From NCBI GenBank assembly GCA_021791415.1, contig JAJYWQ010000044.1, positions 12,401 to 76,400 on the forward strand: a stretch of 64,000 bases of DNA. The letters are read 5' to 3'. A program made the translations under genes and the position numbers. The stretch comes from a bacterium. Its GTDB lineage: Bacteria > Chloroflexota > Dormibacteria > Aeolococcales > Bog-877. This document shows positions 2,176-44,139 of this stretch, piece after piece. How positions within the stretch are numbered: position 1 is the first letter of the stretch; every line of letters starts with the position of its first letter. Under the pieces are notes generated by a model. That model did not search any database. It was not told the DNA's origin and saw only the letters and a program-made list of their open reading frames with translations.

Positions 2176-3885
2176 GTGACGGTAGGCGATATCGCGCGGA
2201 AGGGGCAGGGCCGAAGGTCCCGCGAATCTCGGGACCTTCGGCCCCTCTCCCCTGCTACAGTTCTGATCTGTCCAGTGGCCAGCGCCAGCCCCGATCGCCG
2301 TGACCTGCTGCTGGAGGCGGGCCTGGCGCTCACCTCCGAGCTTTCGCTCCCATCGCTTCTGCGGCGGATCGTGAGGCTCGCCTGCCAGCTCACTGACGCG
2401 AGGTATGGGGCGCTCGGCGTCCTCGGTCCCGGGGGCGGGATCTCGCAGTTCGTCACCCACGGCGTCAGCGCCGTTGAACGGGGCCGGATCGGGCGTCTTC
2501 CAGAGGGCCGGGGTATCCTGGGGGCCCTGCTGCGACCCGGTCCGCCGCTGCGCCTGGACGACCTCGGCTCAGATTCCCGATCGGTTGGCTTCCCGCCCCA
2601 TCACCCGCCCATGCGCTCATTTCTGGGAGCGCCGGTGGTGATTCGTCGGACCGTCTTCGGGAGCATCTACCTCACCGAGAAGCAGGGCGGGCTGCCCTTC
2701 ACCGCGGACGACCAGCTGTCACTGGAGGTCCTCGCGGGCCAGGCGGCGGTGGCCGTCGCCAACGCCACCCTGTACCAGAGGGCCGTGTCCCGCCAGCGCT
2801 GGCTGGCAGCGCTCCGGGAGGTGGCCCAGGCCACCATCACCGGAGGCGAGCCGTCCGAGGCTCTGCGGCTGGTGGCCGCGTACAGCCGGGAGCTGATCGG
2901 TGGCGGAGCCGCCCTTTTGGCTCGCACCGACGGCGGCATTCGACAGGAGCCCGAGGTGCTGGCCGCCGCCGGTCCGGGGGCCAGGAGCCTCGCCCGGCGG
3001 CTGGGCGCTGCCACCCGGGATCCCGTCGCCGGGGCGGTCCGGCGGGGGCGGCAGTTGGTGATCCAGGTCCCGGCTGCGACCCGAACCGGACGGAGCCCAG
3101 GGACGGCGCCGCTGGCGGTCCTGCCATTCGGGCAAGGGGGGCCCAATCGAGGCGTCCTGCTGGCCTTGGGAGCGGCGGGAGCGCCGCTGCCCGAAGAGGA
3201 GGCTGTCGAGATGCTCACCGCGCTGGCCGCCCAGACCGCCGTGGCCCTGCAGTTTCAGCAGAGCCAGAGCGAGCGGCAGCGGCTGGCCCTGCTGGACGAG
3301 CGGGAGAGGATCGCCAAAGAGCTCCACGACGGGGTGATTCAGTCCCTGTTCGCCGTCGGCATGGGGTTGCAGGCCGTGGCTCCAGCCACAGACGACGTCA
3401 CCCGCCAGCGGCTCGAACGGGCGGTGCTGGAGCTCGACCAGGTCATCGGCGACCTGCGCCAGTACATATTCGGGCTCCGACCAGGCATCCTGGGATCCAG
3501 CCGGCTGGCTGATGCCATGCGCCGCCTGGGGGAGGATTTCCAGGACCGATGCGGGGTCCACACGGTGGTGGAGGTGGACTCAGAGGTGGAGGCGCGGCTC
3601 GGCGCCCAGGCGGGCGAGCTGCTCCAGCTGACGCGAGAGGCCCTTTCCAACGTCGGCCGGCACGCCCAGGCCACCAGCTGCCGGGTGCGCGCCCGGGCCC
3701 AGGCGAGGTCCACTGTGGTCACCATCTCCGACGACGGTCGGGGCTTCGCCGTCCGCAGGGCCCGCGGCCGGGGCCAGGGCCTGCAGAACATGCGGGACCG
3801 AGCCCGGGGCATCGGTGGCAGGCTGGCGATCACCTCGGCCCCCGGCCGGGGCGCCCGCCTGCGGCTGGTGGTGCCCCATGGCTGA
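2176..3885 (+). CDS. DosS/DosT (DevS)-like sensor histidine kinase with two GAF domains, HisKA_3 and HATPase
   Basis: GAF-A contains GFPPHHPPMRSFLGAPV, as in the DosS/DosT haem pocket. HisKA_3 box ERERIAKELHDGVIQSLF. C-terminal ATPase motifs present. Start uncertain (GTG 2176 or GTG about 2275). The 3' end overlaps the response regulator start by 8 nt. Confidence 0.8.
   Translation: MTVGDIARKGQGRRSRESRDLRPLSPATVLICPVASASPDRRDLLLEAGLALTSELSLPSLLRRIVRLACQLTDARYGALGVLGPGGGISQFVTHGVSAVERGRIGRLPEGRGILGALLRPGPPLRLDDLGSDSRSVGFPPHHPPMRSFLGAPVVIRRTVFGSIYLTEKQGGLPFTADDQLSLEVLAGQAAVAVANATLYQRAVSRQRWLAALREVAQATITGGEPSEALRLVAAYSRELIGGGAALLARTDGGIRQEPEVLAAAGPGARSLARRLGAATRDPVAGAVRRGRQLVIQVPAATRTGRSPGTAPLAVLPFGQGGPNRGVLLALGAAGAPLPEEEAVEMLTALAAQTAVALQFQQSQSERQRLALLDERERIAKELHDGVIQSLFAVGMGLQAVAPATDDVTRQRLERAVLELDQVIGDLRQYIFGLRPGILGSSRLADAMRRLGEDFQDRCGVHTVVEVDSEVEARLGAQAGELLQLTREALSNVGRHAQATSCRVRARAQARSTVVTISDDGRGFAVRRARGRGQGLQNMRDRARGIGGRLAITSAPGRGARLRLVVPHG
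2208..2244. promoter_or_regulatory. Perfect 15 bp inverted repeat with a 7 nt loop, in the divergent intergenic region or 5' leader
   Basis: GGGCCGAAGGTCCCG cgaatct CGGGACCTTCGGCCC. Sits between the NapH-like start (2135, minus) and the DosS-like kinase start (2176 GTG or about 2275 GTG, plus). Confidence 0.4.
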
Positions 3886-4546
3886 GGAACCGCCGCCCAG
3901 CCGGTTGCGGGTGATGCTGGTGGACGACCACGAGCTGGTCCGCGACGGCCTCCGCGCGGTCCTGGGCGCCTCCGGGGAGTTCGACATCGTCGCCGAGGCC
4001 GCGGACGAGGCTGGGGCGATCCGGGAGTTCGAACGCACCAGCCCCGACGTCGTCCTGATGGACGTGCGCCTGGGGTCGGGAAGTGGGATCGAGGCGACCC
4101 GTGAGATGCGGGCCCGCAGGCCCGAAACGAAAGTCCTCATGCTCACCTCCTTCGCCGACGACGAGGCGCTTTTCGCCTCGGTCATGGCCGGCGCGGCCGG
4201 TTACCTCCTGAAGCAGATCCGCGGTGGGGAGATCGTGGCCGCGGTCCGGGCCATCGGAGCCGGTGGAAGCCTGCTGGACCCGGCGCTCACCCGGACCGTC
4301 CTGGACCAGTGGCGAGAGGCCAGAAGCCGGCTCCGCGACGAACGGCTGGCGCGCCTCTCAGCCCAGGAGGAGCGCATCCTGAGCCGGGTGGCCGCAGGGC
4401 GCACCAATCGGGAGATCGCCGCCGAGCTTCACCTGGCCGAAAAGACCGTCAAGAACTACGTCTCCAGCATCCTGGACAAGCTGGAGGTGGCCCGGCGAGC
4501 TGAGGCCGCCGCCTACTTGGCGCGCCACGGGCGGTCCACGTCCTGA
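3878..4546 (+). CDS. NarL/LuxR-family response regulator (DosR/DevR-like)
   Basis: MAEEPPPSRLRVMLVDDHELVRDGL receiver domain. C-terminal LuxR HTH (REIAAELHLAEKTVKNYVSSILDKL). Overlaps the kinase stop (ATGGCTGA). Confidence 0.85.
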   Translation: MAEEPPPSRLRVMLVDDHELVRDGLRAVLGASGEFDIVAEAADEAGAIREFERTSPDVVLMDVRLGSGSGIEATREMRARRPETKVLMLTSFADDEALFASVMAGAAGYLLKQIRGGEIVAAVRAIGAGGSLLDPALTRTVLDQWREARSRLRDERLARLSAQEERILSRVAAGRTNREIAAELHLAEKTVKNYVSSILDKLEVARRAEAAAYLARHGRSTS

Positions 4547-4663: not shown

Positions 4664-5356
4664 TCAGCCCGTCGGCCGGGGCGTCTTCCCACCGTCCCGG
4701 GGCGGAGCCCAAGCCACCGCGGACTCCGCGGCCGCCAACGCAGTCGCGGCGTGGGGGGCGGAGACGCCCCGGTGCGGCTCCAAGACCCGGTCTATGATCC
4801 CGTACTCGACGGCCTCGGTCGCGGTGAGGAAGTAGTCCCGGTCGATGTCCCGCTCGACCTGACCCAGGGGCCGACCGGAGTGGTGGGCGATGATCTCCGC
4901 CATCCGCCGGGTGTTGGCCAGCACCTCGCGCAGCTGGATCTCCATGTCCCGGGGCGCGCCGCGTGTTCCGGCGGTGCCTTGGTGGATCATGATCTTGCTG
5001 CTGGGGAGCGCCATCCGCCTTCCGGCGGCCCCCCCGCACAGAATCATCGCGGCGGCCGACATCCCCATCCCGATACAGGTGGTGGCCACTGGACAGCTCA
5101 CCTGCTGCATCACGTCGTAAATCGCGAAGCCGGCGTATGCCAATCCCCCGGGCGAGTTGATGTAGAGCTGGATCTCGCTCTCCGGGTCCTGGGCCTCCAG
5201 GTACAGCATCTCCGCGACCAGCAGGTTGGCAACCCGGTCGTCGACCTCCTCGCCCAGGAATAGGATGCGCTCCTTCACCAGCAGGGAGTAGATGTCGAAG
5301 GCCCGCTCCCCCCTGGCCGAACTGTCCAGGACCGTCGGCACCAAGCCGGCGGTCAC
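4664..5356 (-). CDS. clpP: ATP-dependent Clp protease proteolytic subunit ClpP (catalytically intact)
   Basis: ERILFLG...YINSPGG...GMGMSAAA...MIHQ...DIDRD carries the Ser-His-Asp triad. GTG start at 5356 has GGAG 8 nt upstream. The AT-rich MIYF... extension in the track has atypical codon usage. About 45 aa C-terminal Ala/Pro-rich tail. Confidence 0.85.
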   Translation of the reverse strand: MTAGLVPTVLDSSARGERAFDIYSLLVKERILFLGEEVDDRVANLLVAEMLYLEAQDPESEIQLYINSPGGLAYAGFAIYDVMQQVSCPVATTCIGMGMSAAAMILCGGAAGRRMALPSSKIMIHQGTAGTRGAPRDMEIQLREVLANTRRMAEIIAHHSGRPLGQVERDIDRDYFLTATEAVEYGIIDRVLEPHRGVSAPHAATALAAAESAVAWAPPRDGGKTPRPTG

Positions 5357-5410
5357 AGCCGGTGCTCCGCTGAGGCCGCACCGCCTGGCGCCGCCCGGTG
5401 AGCCACCCTC

Positions 5411-5427
5411 TTCATATCGTATGAAGT
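5411..5427. promoter_or_regulatory. AT-rich palindrome TTCATA-N3-TATGAA in the clpP/clgR-like divergent promoter region (±2 bp)
   Basis: TTCATATCGTATGAA inside a roughly 45 bp AT-rich patch (ttcatatcgtatgaagtatatcattcaaggtatga) in an otherwise 70% GC sequence. Confidence 0.35.
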
Positions 5428-5470
5428 ATATCATTCAAGGTATGAGACGGCATGGACGGGGAGCCCACGG

Positions 5471-5731
5471 GTGACGGGGCGCAGGCACGAAACCCCCTTC
5501 CCTGGGTTCCAGGAGATGGCGGAGCGGCGCCGGCACCTGGGAGGCCAGCTCGCCGCCCGCCGGCTGGCTGCGGGACTTTCGCAGACGGAGCTCGCTGCCC
5601 GCATGGGCACCTCGCAGTCCGCTGTGGCGCGGCTGGAGGCGGGGAAGGCGGACGTCCGGATTTCCACGGTGACCAGGTACGCGCGGGCCCTGGCGCTCCA
5701 GGTGGAGATCACCCTGGGGGAACGTGGCTGA
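5471..5731 (+). CDS. XRE-family helix-turn-helix transcriptional regulator (ClgR-like)
   Basis: LSQTELAARMGTSQSAVARLEAG HTH. GTG start has GGGGAG upstream. Divergent from clpP. Stop overlaps the downstream ClpP-like gene. Confidence 0.6.
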   Translation: MTGRRHETPFPGFQEMAERRRHLGGQLAARRLAAGLSQTELAARMGTSQSAVARLEAGKADVRISTVTRYARALALQVEITLGERG

Positions 5732-6302
5732 GGAGGGGGCCCCGCCGGTCTGGGCCCTTCTGCAAGAGGAGCTGTCGGCCCGGGGGATGATCCTGATCCA
5801 GGGACACCTGGACCATCAGCTGGCCACCCGCGCGGCTGCCCAGCTGATGGAGTGTGACGCCGTCTCCGACGCGCCCGCTCGCATCCACCTGTTCACCTCG
5901 TCCGGGGAGTTCGGCTGCGCCCTCACGCTCATGGACACGATCACGGCGCTGGGCATACCGACCGAGGTCACGGCGGTGGGGGCGGTGCAGGGCCCTGGCC
6001 TTGGTGTGCTGGCGGTCGCCGACCGCCGGGTGGCAACACCCAACTGCCGGCTCGCCTTCGCCGCCCCTCGACTGCAGTTGGACGGGGACCTGACCGAGCT
6101 GACCGGACTCCTAGACGCCGAGTTGCGAGATCAGCAGCGGTGGACAGAGCAGGTGGCCCAAGCCACCGGGCGGCCGCTCGAGCTCGTGGAGGCGGACCTC
6201 GCCACCGCCCTCACCCTCGCGCCGGAAGCGGCCCTGCGCTACCGGCTGATCGACGAGGTGCTGGCCGCCTCCCCCGGGCCCTCGAGGGGATCGCTGAGGT
6301 AG
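5725..6302 (+). CDS. ClpP-family paralog lacking the catalytic triad (ClpR-like pseudo-protease)
   Basis: LLQEELSARGMILIQGHLDHQLA...LFTSSGEFGCALTLMDTI aligns with the ClpP fold. The active-site Ser, His and Asp positions are replaced (GAVQGPG, RLAFAAP). Overlaps the XRE regulator stop by 7 nt. Confidence 0.6.
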
Positions 6303-6660
6303 GGATCGGGCGGCTCGCCTCCACCGACCGCCAACCGGGCGGGAGGCAGGTCACTGGAGCGCTCCGCCAGGCCGAGGATCTGATCACCGATCCCCTGGTG
6401 GCGGAGCACGTCCCACCCGGCCTCAGGCTCCAGCGGGGTGGTGGCGACGACCTGATCACCCTCGACATGAACGTTCCAACCCAGGTTCTCCAGCCGCCGG
6501 AGCACCGGCGAGAGGATGGCCGCGCGGTCGTGGATCTGCTTGGCGGCGGCGGCTATCCGCACCGAAACCGGGAGGTCCGCGGGGGTGGGCCTGTCGGGGA
6601 AGCCGAAGGAGTGCATCTCCATGTACGTTTCCATGTGCCGGGAGATGGGCTCCCGGGTCA
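6239..6660 (-). CDS. Hypothetical protein, last gene of the bd-like/Rieske-b operon
   Basis: In-frame tail of track ORF 6239..7402 after the CydA-like stop at 6709. GTG about 6660 has GGTGAGGAG 9 nt upstream. High GC3. No recognisable motifs. Confidence 0.3.
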
Positions 6661-6708
6661 CCTCGCGGAGCTCCTCACCCGCCCGCCGGATGGGCCGGAA
6701 GACCAGCC

Positions 6709-8100
6709 TCACGGTCCGGTCCTGGTGGGCACCATGACCCCCAGATTGCTCGCCGGACCATTGAGGGCCGGGCCGCTGGTGGAGGGCGGCGTGTAATTCT
6801 GCTGCTGATTGATGAGCATGTGGTTGGTGATCAGGAAGGGGCCCCGGCTGTCCTCGCGGATGTAACCCATCAGAGCCATGATCAGGGAGATGGCCACCCC
6901 CACGGTGATGAGGGAGATGGCCTGTCCCCGCCCGGCGTCCCCCCAGTGCAGCCGGCCTCGGGAGAGATGGACGGCGTAGACGGTGATCGCGGTGATGGTC
7001 ACCCCGGTGAAGACGATGAGGGCCGTGAGCTTCCAGGGGATCATCTGCCCCCAGGGGATGAGCAGCCCCCCCTGCCAGATGGGGACATTGGCGTTGGCGG
7101 CGAAGACGCTCTCGTAGCTCCAGGCCAGCGACGAAGGGGTGGAGATCAGCAACCAGGCCGCGAAGGAGAGAGCGGTGCACACCGCCAGCGCCGGCGAGCG
7201 GAAGCCGCTGACCCGAACCCGGCGCCAGAGGTAGAAGATCCCCACGGTGAAGATCGCCCCCAGGAGGAACACCTGGAAGAGGAAGGCCACCGACAGCCCG
7301 CCCAGCATCATCTCGTACCAGGAGGCATAGGCGTGGAGCTGGATCTCCTTGGCGTACTCCCACCCGACCAGGGGCTGGGCGATCGTGAACCCCACCGCCC
7401 ACATCAGCCCGTAGTGGCCCATCCAGTCCAGGTAGGCACGATGCAACTGCTGCCGGGAACGCCAGAGCAGGCGGATCCCCGCCACCAGCGCCACCATCGC
7501 CCCGGCGAAGGCGATGTTGCCGACGAAGCGGTGCATCTCCAGAGGGATCTCTGTGGGGTTCATGAGGATGAGCGGCAGGTTGAAGGCCGGACGGGGCGTG
7601 AGCATGTAGGAGGCCACCACGTTGATCATCAGCATCTGGATGCTGGCGTTGATGAAGAGGAGGATCTCCAGCCCCACCCGCAGCCCCCTCACCCGTCCCA
7701 GCCGGTCCCAGCGCGCATAGAGCGGGTAGAGGCAGATGATCTCGCCGACGAAGGCGGCGGCCTCGGCCACGAAGGGCCAGAACAGGATCCTCTCCAGGGT
7801 CACGAAGAAGTGGCTCCAGAGCCCCAGGAAGAGGATCATCACCGCGAAGATCGCCAGGGAGCCTCCCACCGCGAAGGTCGCCCCCAGGACGGTGACCAGC
7901 CCCTTGGAGAAGCGGTCGTAGTGGGGGTTGCGGCGCTTCCAGCCCATGAAGTCCGTGACCGCCAGGATTATGTACCCGCCCTGCTGAAAGGCCGCGAACT
8001 GAATGTGGCCGAGCATCAGCAGGGCGACCAGGGCGGTCGCCACGCCGGTGGAGATCGGGACCGGGGTGAGCTGGGGGGTGGAAGCGAGGATCAAGTGCAT
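6709..8100 (-). CDS. Cytochrome bd-family subunit I (CydA-like) paralog 2
   Basis: Polytopic membrane protein with the CydA signature WDRLG (PLYARWDRLGRVRGL). Start is 1 nt after the cytochrome b stop. Confidence 0.7.
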   Translation of the reverse strand: MHLILASTPQLTPVPISTGVATALVALLMLGHIQFAAFQQGGYIILAVTDFMGWKRRNPHYDRFSKGLVTVLGATFAVGGSLAIFAVMILFLGLWSHFFVTLERILFWPFVAEAAAFVGEIICLYPLYARWDRLGRVRGLRVGLEILLFINASIQMLMINVVASYMLTPRPAFNLPLILMNPTEIPLEMHRFVGNIAFAGAMVALVAGIRLLWRSRQQLHRAYLDWMGHYGLMWAVGFTIAQPLVGWEYAKEIQLHAYASWYEMMLGGLSVAFLFQVFLLGAIFTVGIFYLWRRVRVSGFRSPALAVCTALSFAAWLLISTPSSLAWSYESVFAANANVPIWQGGLLIPWGQMIPWKLTALIVFTGVTITAITVYAVHLSRGRLHWGDAGRGQAISLITVGVAISLIMALMGYIREDSRGPFLITNHMLINQQQNYTPPSTSGPALNGPASNLGVMVPTRTGP

Positions 8101-8101
8101 A

Positions 8102-9310
8102 TCAGAGGTTGAAGAGCCGGTTCACCGCCAGCAGCGCCTCGAAGAGGAGGAACAGCACCACGAAGAGGGCCGGGATCATAACCTCGGGGCGGCGCCAGGG
8201 CTCCCGACCCGGGGTCCGGTCGAGGAAGGGTACCAAGATCAGGAGGGTTGTCCCTATCCCCGGGACGATGAAGACCCCGACCGGGATCATCCAGGCCTGG
8301 GGGAACTGCACCAGCATCTGGTCGAGCGGAAGGAAGAACCACTCAGGGGTGGGGACGTAGTTGAGGGCGGCCGGGTTGGCGGCGCGCTCCAGGGGGGCGC
8401 CCACCACCACCGCCATGACGAAGATGAGCAGCACCAGCCCGAAGCTCACCACCGAGTCCTTGAACACCTGGGAGGGGAAGAACTCGTCGAGGTCCACCGG
8501 CACCGCGTATCCAGGGTCCGAGGGAATGGCCGGATAGGGGTACTCGACATGAGCCATCCGCCGCGCCCTCTCCTCCGCGGTCTCCTCCTCGACTCCCTCG
8601 TAGTTGACCCAGGACCCGTGCTCGCCGTGACGCCGGAGCAAGATCAGGTGCAGCCCGATGAGGGGAACCAGCAGGGCCGGCAGCAGCCAGATGTGGATGG
8701 CGAAGAAGCGTGTCAGGGTGGCCGGCCCCATCTGGGGCCCACCACGGAGGATCTCCTGCAGCTGGGTCCCGAAGATGGGGAAGTACTCGACGACATGGGT
8801 CACCACGGTCGCCGTCCAGTAGGCGGCCTGGTCCCAGGGCAGCATCGCCCCGGTGATCCCCAGCCCCAGGACCAGCAGGAACAGGACCACGCCGACTATC
8901 CAGTTGAGCTCTCGGGGCTTCTTGTAGGAGCCGCTCACGAAGGTGCGAACCATGTGCAGCCCGATGACCACGAACAGCACGTAGGCCCCCCAGAGGTGCA
9001 TCCCCCGGACGATGGCCCCGAACTCGTCGTGCCTCTCGGTGAAGTTGAGACTCTCCCAGGCCTCGGTGGTCGAGGGCACGTAGGTCCAGAGGAGGAACAT
9101 CCCGGTCACTATCTGGTTCACGATCAGGATCAGGGTCGCGCTGCCCAGGGAGTAGGCCCAGGCTCCTCGCCGGGGCACCGCCTCGTAGAGGAGCTGGTGG
9201 ACCAGGTCGGTGACCCCGAGGCGCTCGTCCACCCACCTGTAGGTGGTGGCCATCACCCCGGCGAAGGGCCGGCTCAGGCGACCTGCCAGACGGCTTCTCT
9301 CGGCGGCCAT
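8102..9310 (-). CDS. Cytochrome b (fused b6/subunit IV type) of a Rieske/b quinol oxidoreductase
   Basis: Conserved His pairs in TM helices and the PEWFFLP motif. 402 aa. Alternative start at MATTYRW (about 9253). Confidence 0.85.
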   Translation of the reverse strand: MAAERSRLAGRLSRPFAGVMATTYRWVDERLGVTDLVHQLLYEAVPRRGAWAYSLGSATLILIVNQIVTGMFLLWTYVPSTTEAWESLNFTERHDEFGAIVRGMHLWGAYVLFVVIGLHMVRTFVSGSYKKPRELNWIVGVVLFLLVLGLGITGAMLPWDQAAYWTATVVTHVVEYFPIFGTQLQEILRGGPQMGPATLTRFFAIHIWLLPALLVPLIGLHLILLRRHGEHGSWVNYEGVEEETAEERARRMAHVEYPYPAIPSDPGYAVPVDLDEFFPSQVFKDSVVSFGLVLLIFVMAVVVGAPLERAANPAALNYVPTPEWFFLPLDQMLVQFPQAWMIPVGVFIVPGIGTTLLILVPFLDRTPGREPWRRPEVMIPALFVVLFLLFEALLAVNRLFNL

Positions 9311-40884: not shown

Positions 40885-40957
40885 GGGGCCGTGGCGCAGC
40901 GGCAGCGCGCTTCCTTGGCATGGAAGAGGTCGCGGGTTCAATTCCCGCCGGCTCCAC
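40885..40957 (+). tRNA. tRNA-Ala (anticodon GGC)
   Basis: Cloverleaf: acceptor GGGGCCG/CGGCTCC with G3:U70. Anticodon stem CTTCC/GGAAG, loop ttGGCat. T-loop TTCAATT. Confidence 0.8.
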
Positions 40958-44063: not shown

Positions 44064-44139
44064 GGGGCGATAGCTCAGCTGGCAGAGCGCTGCTTTCGCA
44101 CGGCAGAGGTCAGGGGTTCAAGTCCCCTTCGCTCCACCA
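44064..44139 (+). tRNA. tRNA-Ala (anticodon CGC), CCA encoded
   Basis: Acceptor GGGGCGA/TCGCTCC with G3:U70. D-arm GCTCAGCTGGCAGAGC. Anticodon loop ttCGCac. T-loop TTCAAGT. Followed by the GGTCGCCgcgGGCGACC hairpin. Confidence 0.8.

Follow-up and report, generated by a model that had tools for sequence, protein, structure and literature searches.

Gene content of the locus

We analysed a bacterial DNA stretch of 64,000 nucleotides (contig JAJYWQ010000044.1, positions 12,401 to 76,400; assembly GCA_021791415.1), hereafter called the window, with a focus on a locus in which an active clpP gene diverges from a gene pair. The pair encodes a helix-turn-helix (HTH) regulator of the XRE family and a second protein of ClpP fold that has lost its catalytic triad, referred to here as pseudo-ClpP. 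Coordinates refer to the window unless a related locus (L numbers) is named; P numbers denote related proteins. The locus comprises the following features:

4664-5356, minus strand: clpP, active-type ClpP of 230 aa with GTG start and intact triad
5357-5470: clpP-xre intergenic region, between the two start codons
5409-5446, no strand: AT-rich shared control island with a palindrome and a second ATATC box, delimited by the A+T profile
5471-5731, plus strand: xre, 86-aa XRE-family HTH regulator (HTH_31, 50.6 bits; HTH_3, 49.3 bits)
5724-6302, plus strand: pseudo-ClpP, 192 aa with GTG start, ClpP fold with the triad lost (PF00574, 51.7 bits)

The product of clpP matches PF00574 with 230.5 bits and the NCBIfam model NF001368 with 258.6 bits (cut-off 249). 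Its Ser, His and Asp are located in the motifs GMGMS-AA, IMIHQ and ERDIDRDYF of the alignments, in agreement with an earlier note on this DNA that had described the triad as intact. The N-terminal axial-loop residues are canonical, and the closest solved structures (7m1m, 9ndj, 6hwm and 1tyf, matched with 215-225 bits) are ClpPs of ~200-210 residues. An alternative longer open reading frame (ORF) starting with ATG reaches position 5434 and would cross the AT-rich control region; the GTG at 5356 is supported as the start because it aligns with an ATG at the homologous codon of the relative L001. No second clpP was found within the 64-kb window. On the other side of the intergenic region the stop of xre and the GTG start of pseudo-ClpP overlap by 8 nt (GTGGCTGA, 5724-5731). 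The overlap itself had been noticed before, with a length of 7 nt that needs to be corrected.

Pseudo-ClpP retains the fold and has lost the triad

The PF00574 match of pseudo-ClpP exceeds the cut-off of 20.2 bits (E = 1.3e-13), which upholds the family assignment proposed in the earlier note. All three triad positions are substituted, as also stated there: Ser is replaced by Gly90 (GAVQ-G-PG), His by Ala113 (LAF-A-AP) and Asp by Ala162 (DLAT-A-LTL). Misalignment is not the cause, since the same mapping was obtained in three agreeing alignments (phmmer against ClpPs of the PDB, MAFFT with the window ClpP and MAFFT with E. coli ClpP). With 127 homologues as input, AlphaFold2 gave a model whose mean predicted local distance difference test (pLDDT) score is 92.4. 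Superposition by Foldseek on solved ClpPs gave template modelling (TM) scores of 0.77-0.84, with a root-mean-square deviation often of about 2 Å, and the long handle helix is kept (residues 123-148).

Two surface features of ClpP are altered. The N-terminal axial hairpin is missing, with ~11 residues absent in the alignment. At the positions of Y60, Y62, F82 and F112, which we take from the literature on ClpP with acyldepsipeptides (ADEPs) or IGF motifs to be the hydrophobic-pocket residues of E. coli ClpP, the window protein carries R, H, A and V. Across the family these positions are variable or Arg; the Y62 position is Arg in 85 of 127 members and His in the window. The missing hairpin and the loss of the pocket aromatics suggest that pseudo-ClpP is unfit to dock AAA+ partners itself.

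We also assessed the selection acting on the three genes. Compared with three relatives, the ratio of nonsynonymous to synonymous substitution rates (dN/dS) of pseudo-ClpP is 0.41-0.44, indicating purifying selection; the values of clpP (0.07-0.20) and xre (0.07-0.18) are lower and reflect tighter constraint. Identity to the copies from Dormibacterota is 40-44% for pseudo-ClpP, 72-78% for ClpP and 61-65% for XRE. Judged from these sequence comparisons, pseudo-ClpP evolves faster than would be expected of a core protease subunit. The PF00574 match, the confident model, the ClpP-like superposition and a dN/dS of ~0.42 identify it as a real gene and not a chance ORF. Its 3' end is overlapped by ~60 nt by a small convergent gene at about 6239-6660 (minus strand), whose counterpart in L001 encodes 139 aa with no Pfam match.

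A large family of triad-less ClpPs

A word-indexed search recovered only nine close relatives of pseudo-ClpP. When 1.84 billion cluster representatives were searched with a profile, 216 clusters matched at E<=1e-10, which is a lower bound with family clusters defined at 50% identity; at E<=1e-3 the number rose to 764. A further profile search gave 249 clusters at E<=1e-10, with members from Rhodococcus opacus, R. ruber and Pseudonocardia bannensis and from metagenome-assembled genomes (MAGs) of Pseudonocardiaceae, Mycobacteriales and Actinomycetota. The family thus ranges over Dormibacterota MAGs and many Actinomycetota. The earlier note had placed the locus in actinobacteria: the family is indeed also present in Rhodococcus, Pseudonocardia, Nonomuraea and Acidimicrobiales, but for the window itself this placement is unproven, the next-closest named genomes being Candidatus Dormibacterota. 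Members with a named source are all annotated as 'ATP-dependent Clp protease proteolytic subunit' or 'ClpP family protease'.

Loss of the triad extends through the family. Ser, His and Asp are intact in one of the 149 best representatives. In an alignment of 127 members, which contains invariant columns, the Ser position is Gly in 123 sequences and the Asp position is Gly in 106 and Asp in none, while the His position is most often Arg (76), followed by Cys (18), Gly (9) and Lys (9), and is His in only two. The same 127 members match PF00574 alone in Pfam, save for one weak match to Peptidase_S49; NCBIfam holds no model specific to the window pseudo-ClpP. Against the PDB, the family profile scores 105-135 bits with catalytic ClpPs from many phyla, with little difference among them, and no solved structure belongs to the family. 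Single-sequence and profile searches of the PDB returned no entry described as ClpR among the 60 matches listed. We read the family as a probable offshoot of ClpP with an independent loss of the triad and not as an orthologue of ClpR.

The N-terminal extensions of family members are variable and Pro-rich, with lengths from 0 to about 70 aa. In one protein (P0009, 187 aa) both ends align and the middle third (GRASGCWPWPGAGWQLATARWPLPPIDCRWRGQWGG) departs from all relatives, probably as the result of a frameshifted gene call.

Pseudo-ClpP is paired with the regulator

The neighbourhood of the window locus is syntenic in relatives deposited as 'MAG: bacterium', with 71-83% protein identity. The layout with clpP pointing leftward and xre followed by pseudo-ClpP pointing rightward recurs in Candidatus Dormibacterota MAGs, where the copies share 40-44% identity, and in seven further unrelated flanking contexts, four of which were reached from pseudo-ClpP. 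Three look-ups that started independently from XRE homologues led to two syntenic loci and a distinct one. Whichever gene the look-up began from, xre was directly followed by pseudo-ClpP in all 15 distinct gene contexts sampled, usually with a start-stop overlap of 4-20 nt. A divergent active clpP is present in 11 of the 15. Four contexts have the pair but no clpP next to it: Rhodococcus opacus B4, a Pseudonocardiaceae MAG, L026 and Nonomuraea sp. Since the pair persists in these contexts, the regulator and not clpP is the constant partner of pseudo-ClpP, and the context ties pseudo-ClpP more tightly to the regulator than to ClpP. In Nonomuraea sp. NPDC046570 (NZ_JBEYZF010000009.1; L012 5659-6513) the HTH and the triad-less ClpP domain form one ORF of 284 aa with a Pro-rich linker, and no clpP is nearby.

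No metabolic neighbours recur across the sampled contexts; the recurrent neighbour is clpP. The cassette-linked active ClpPs (loci L001-L025) share 64-92% identity with the window ClpP across very different genomic contexts, and GM[GA]MSAA around the catalytic Ser is common to all of them. On these two grounds they constitute a distinct conserved subclade that is co-inherited with the xre-pseudo-ClpP pair. Neither the window protein nor the R. opacus member had a tblastn match among 72,556 plasmids. In R. opacus B4 the pair lies at about 5.07 Mb of AP011115.1. The annotated start of its pseudo-ClpP (L017 6001) probably truncates the gene; beginning at 5917 instead (L017 5917-6570), it overlaps the xre stop by 4 nt and gains a WPP..PWQPD N-terminal motif seen in other actinobacterial members.

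The shared control region and its inverted repeat

The earlier note had also pointed to an AT-rich palindromic region between the divergent genes, and this observation holds. The island at 5409-5446 has an A+T content of 60-75% in a window of 69.8% G+C overall and is the sole AT-rich stretch within 5357-5470. It contains the palindrome TCATATCGTATGA at 5412-5424, which is unique in the 64 kb even if one mismatch is allowed (chance expectation 0.10 matches), and a second ATATC box at 5428-5432. Palindrome and box together (CATATCGTATGAAGTATATCAT, 5413-5434) are the local version, with a shorter spacer, of a family-wide ATATCTC-N4-6-GAGATAT inverted repeat.

Repeats of this type precede xre in most of the related loci read, including the four that lack clpP. 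L013 has perfect arms of 22 nt. The arms are TATGATATCTC/GAGATATCATA in L015, ATTATCTCATA/TATGAGATAAT in L019 and TCGAGATACCATC/GATGGTATGTCGA in Rhodococcus, and the complete repeats of L022 and Nonomuraea read CATATCTCATTAGTGAGATATCAT and TTATCTCGCCAATGAGATAC, respectively. Across 23 fetched loci a loose version of the pattern matches almost solely these intergenic regions upstream of xre. In several loci the repeat abuts the xre start. Its presence in the four clpP-less loci and its position at the xre start argue for autoregulation of xre, most simply by repression. In the window the repeat must overlap both the clpP and the xre promoter, because no other A/T-rich DNA lies between the start codons of these genes.

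A second small HTH gene was found ~2 kb upstream of the cassette in two loci (L020 1870-2235 and L022 2087-2323). In L022 it is preceded by an ATATC..GATAT repeat (1926-1943), and it may represent a paralogous regulator with the same type of operator.

The regulator carries a conserved N-terminal arm

The XRE protein belongs to a large subfamily, with 4728 related clusters at E<=1e-8, some of them with members named from Acidimicrobiales. The hallmark of the subfamily is an N-terminal RRH[ED]xxFPGF motif, present in the window as RRHETPFPGF ahead of helix 1. The core [FL]PG[FV] was found in 120 of 120 top homologues, and R4, H6, P11 and G12 are invariant among them. In the AlphaFold2 monomer residues 1-10 have a pLDDT of 56, and helix 1 starts at residue 13. 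With the invariant residues located in or next to a non-helical arm of low confidence, the FPGF arm fits a motif that binds either a protein partner or DNA. Variants of the motif, FPGL or FPGV, occur in pairs that lack clpP, and the fused Nonomuraea protein has a degenerate LPEV. This distribution is compatible with, and hints weakly at, a role of the motif in tethering the regulator to pseudo-ClpP.

The best NCBIfam match of XRE is a Y4mF/HipB-type antitoxin model, below the cut-off. PADLOC returned only generic HTH matches for it, including the CapH model (E = 2e-7).

IGF-like tails in part of the family

Clp ATPases possess an IGF motif (PMC7966870). A C-terminal tail ..LPGPP[IM]GFRPRR resembling the IGF loop by which they dock on ClpP is found in 61 of 293 members of the pseudo-ClpP family (~21%). 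Six more members carry an [ILMVF]GF motif in the N-terminal extension, and only three carry it inside the domain. Seven sampled loci encode the C-terminal tail (L013, L015, L018 after frame correction, L019, L020, L022 and L025), and L023 encodes a PGFSF variant. The following genes encode tail-bearing pseudo-ClpPs:

L013 5001-5636
L015 5001-5639
L019 6001-6594
L020 4261-4896
L022 4261-4896
L025 4001-4621

A divergent clpP is present in all eight tail-type loci, the L023 variant included, and the C-terminal tail is absent from the four loci without clpP. The resemblance to the IGF loop and the presence of clpP in eight of eight loci point to contact with ClpP in the tail-bearing lineages. The clue bears on the family rather than directly on the window locus.

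In L026 the segment 3761-4000 between xre and the called start of pseudo-ClpP is in frame with pseudo-ClpP and Pro-rich, and it ends in ..RPSIGFRPDETA; P0216 and P0238 have an N-terminal IGF-like motif like that of L026. The L018 protein (6001-7056; P0198, 351 aa) has a long C-terminal extension that looks like a frameshift artefact; a different frame closes with ..GQPPMGFRPLR*, the IGF-like tail typical of the family.

Comparison with known systems

ClpR is a triad-less ClpP homologue that coexists with active ClpP (PMC7966870). The earlier note had called the paralog ClpR-type, and as a description this is apt: pseudo-ClpP likewise combines the ClpP fold with the loss of Ser, His and Asp, and an active ClpP is encoded beside it. 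The name probably does not extend to relatedness: the matches listed in the PDB searches gave no specific affinity to ClpR. Pseudo-ClpP is encoded in an operon with an HTH regulator rather than with clpP. It also differs in the missing axial hairpin, in the almost invariable replacement of Ser by Gly and in its lineage, Dormibacterota and Actinomycetota as opposed to cyanobacteria, plastids and apicoplasts. The ClpP1/ClpP2 cores of Listeria, Mycobacterium, Streptomyces, Pseudomonas and Chlamydia are similar in that two paralogs occur, one of them weakly active or inactive alone. Those paralogs keep Ser and His, however, and are usually co-transcribed or independently regulated, none being coupled to a regulator.

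The description of the regulator as ClgR-like holds only at the level of the XRE superfamily (HTH_31, HTH_3), apart from a predicted dedication to clp genes. It fails for the subfamily, the binding site and the C-terminus. ClgR and PopR reportedly end in a C-terminal Ala-Ala degron and are degraded by ClpP. The window XRE has no C-terminal Ala-Ala; it ends in ..LGERG, and the commonest ends among the top 120 homologues are GR, KR, EP and RG. ClgR binds a CGC-N5-GCG core site (PMC3613350), which does not occur in 5357-5470, though 65 occurrences lie elsewhere in the window. ClgR and PopR are activators degraded by ClpP1P2 (PMC9765437), and in Streptomyces the XRE clp regulator is part of a feedback loop that runs through its target protease (PMC9765437, PMC3613350). 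The operator of the window is instead an A/T-rich inverted repeat of the ATATC type at the promoter region, with repression as the more likely mode. Neither the RRHxxxFPGF signature nor a pseudo-protease partner has a counterpart that we found in the ClgR/PopR literature.

A different parallel is offered by ImmR/ImmA, DdrO/IrrE and CapH/CapP, in which a small XRE autorepressor is combined with an active metalloprotease that cleaves the repressor. The window locus has in common with them a small XRE protein co-transcribed with a protease-fold partner. This partner, however, has an S14 serine-protease fold devoid of catalytic residues, and the active ClpP is the product of a separate, divergent gene.

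A putative clp-control module and alternative explanations

We tentatively favour, at somewhat short of an even chance, a module in which an XRE autorepressor and its coupled non-catalytic ClpP-fold partner together control the divergent clpP. XRE would bind the A/T-rich inverted repeat in the shared control region and most likely repress both its own operon and clpP. Pseudo-ClpP would be made in step with XRE by translational coupling. As the obligate partner of the XRE protein it would act as a non-catalytic sensor or co-regulator, which could bind or mimic ClpP and so link the activity of XRE to the state of the Clp protease; the outcome would be feedback control of clpP. XRE and pseudo-ClpP may be in physical contact, perhaps through the FPGF arm. 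A more far-reaching version, which we regard as possible but put clearly below an even chance, treats the pair as a transcriptional feedback device of a new class. In this version a protease look-alike ring is the sensory partner of an HTH repressor, reads free ClpP or the docking capacity of Clp ATPases through IGF-like and FPGF motifs and in this way sets clpP transcription.

Several points weigh against the proposed clp-control module. The contacts among XRE, pseudo-ClpP and ClpP are all predicted, and we infer repression in preference to activation solely from the operator position. The FPGF arm could equally contact DNA. Co-regulation of clpP and its paralog from one operator is also expected of a two-subunit protease, and the retention of the full ClpP fold with its handle helix suits a ring-forming subunit. 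IGF-like motifs are absent from the window protein, its close relatives and the Dormibacterota copies, and the N-terminal motif of the clpP-less L026 shows that the link between motif and clpP is not clean. The Nonomuraea fusion is a single case that could be an assembly error. A scan of 5250-5800 for sigma-70 promoters and terminators found none, the consensus probably being unsuited to this organism of 70% G+C.

The main rival is a structural role resembling that of ClpR: pseudo-ClpP would co-assemble with ClpP, in mixed heptamers or as a dead ring on an active ring, and XRE would merely co-regulate the two. The complete fold, including the helix used for ring-ring contact, speaks for this, as do the occurrence of one conserved clpP subclade divergent in 11 of 15 contexts with the same operator region, the IGF-like tails of cassette members, which suggest ClpP contact, and the precedents of ClpP3/R (PMC7966870) and of hetero-tetradecamers of the ClpP1P2 type (PMC9765437). 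Yet none of the sampled contexts places pseudo-ClpP in an operon with clpP; throughout, its translation is coupled to that of a DNA-binding protein, and in four contexts no clpP is adjacent. Pseudo-ClpP is under weaker constraint than ClpP, lacks the axial hairpin and has a remodelled pocket, and the N-terminal extensions of the family vary from nothing to about 70 Pro-rich residues, with one HTH fusion. We therefore regard a structural role as rather unlikely, while noting that it and the clp-control module are not mutually exclusive. An arrangement akin to a toxin-antitoxin (TA) system, in which pseudo-ClpP poisons or caps ClpP as a dominant-negative subunit or as a lid docked by its IGF tail and XRE neutralises it and represses itself, appears improbable to us. 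The locus does have the layout of a type II TA system, with a small HTH gene, an overlapping downstream gene and a palindromic operator; the sub-threshold antitoxin match of XRE points the same way, and IGF-like tails could block ATPase docking. Against these stand a single-copy, chromosomal and syntenic locus with no copies among the plasmids searched, the lack of a PADLOC match for the paralog or ClpP, a ClpP fold that is no known toxin fold and a window copy with no IGF-like tail.

Weak, sub-threshold matches to enoyl-CoA hydratase models and the new residues conserved at the old active site (Gly, Arg in 76 of 127 and Gly) would fit a neofunctionalised enzyme that uses the ClpP/crotonase fold for non-proteolytic chemistry or ligand binding, with XRE as a pathway regulator. 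As clpP is the neighbour that recurs across contexts, with no metabolic genes doing so, and the best profile matches are all ClpPs, we consider this very improbable. Hardly credible is a ClgR- or PopR-type activator beside a decaying, functionless clpP duplicate. Actinobacteria do have XRE regulators of clp genes, with popR controlling clpP3clpP4 (PMC9765437), and the paralog does evolve faster than its neighbours. However, the ClgR site is lacking, the XRE subfamily is a different one, and the paralog is intact, with a dN/dS of 0.42, invariant columns, the nearly uniform Gly at the Ser position and a confident model. Pseudogenes would not persist in this way across phyla, so that conservation already largely refutes this explanation. 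For the paralog itself, a pseudogene was rejected on conservation, dN/dS and the confident structure model. A prophage head-maturation protease was likewise rejected: the context is not that of a phage, and the NCBIfam phage ClpP models match the active ClpP only.

Novelty and implications

Clp proteases have a central place in the proteostasis of bacteria and serve as antibiotic targets (ADEPs; ClpP1P2 in mycobacteria). To our knowledge, non-catalytic ClpP paralogs have so far been treated as a cyanobacterial or organellar feature. The earlier note knew of no inactive ClpP coupled to a regulator in actinobacteria, and full-text literature searches, whose coverage leaves subscription journals aside, likewise returned no report of an inactive or pseudo ClpP coupled to an XRE regulator or of ClpR outside phototrophs; what they returned was known work on ClpR, ClpP1/P2 and ClgR/PopR. 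The locus combines known kinds of elements, a non-catalytic ClpP paralog and XRE control of clp genes, with a realistic chance of being a new type of regulatory device.

The family constitutes a second, large and probably independent group of dead ClpPs, which is found in phyla of soil bacteria, cultivable genera among them (Rhodococcus, Pseudonocardia and Nonomuraea), and is tied to one HTH subfamily in every context sampled. If the proposed control module is correct, it would represent a mode of clpP regulation distinct from ClgR, CtsR and sigma-32 and an example of a pseudo-enzyme serving as the partner of a regulator, and hundreds of database entries named 'ATP-dependent Clp protease proteolytic subunit' would be corrected. 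Should the pair be a feedback device as outlined above, thousands of genomes of Actinomycetota and Dormibacterota would carry an unrecognised proteostasis regulator that is now mis-annotated as ClpP.

Neighbouring genes

Convergent with clpP, the plus strand at 2176-4546 encodes a GAF/HisKA_3 sensor kinase and a LuxR-type response regulator (Response_reg and GerE), an arrangement that is kept in L001. Beyond the cassette a respiratory-looking cluster, likewise conserved in L001, extends over 6709-9310 on the minus strand and further. It comprises a 463-aa membrane protein with no Pfam match, cytochrome b, a Rieske protein, a 77-aa ORF and a Cyt_bd_oxida_I-like gene. The sole Rfam matches in the whole window are two tRNA-Ala genes on the plus strand, at 40885-40957 (GGC) and 44064-44139 (CGC).

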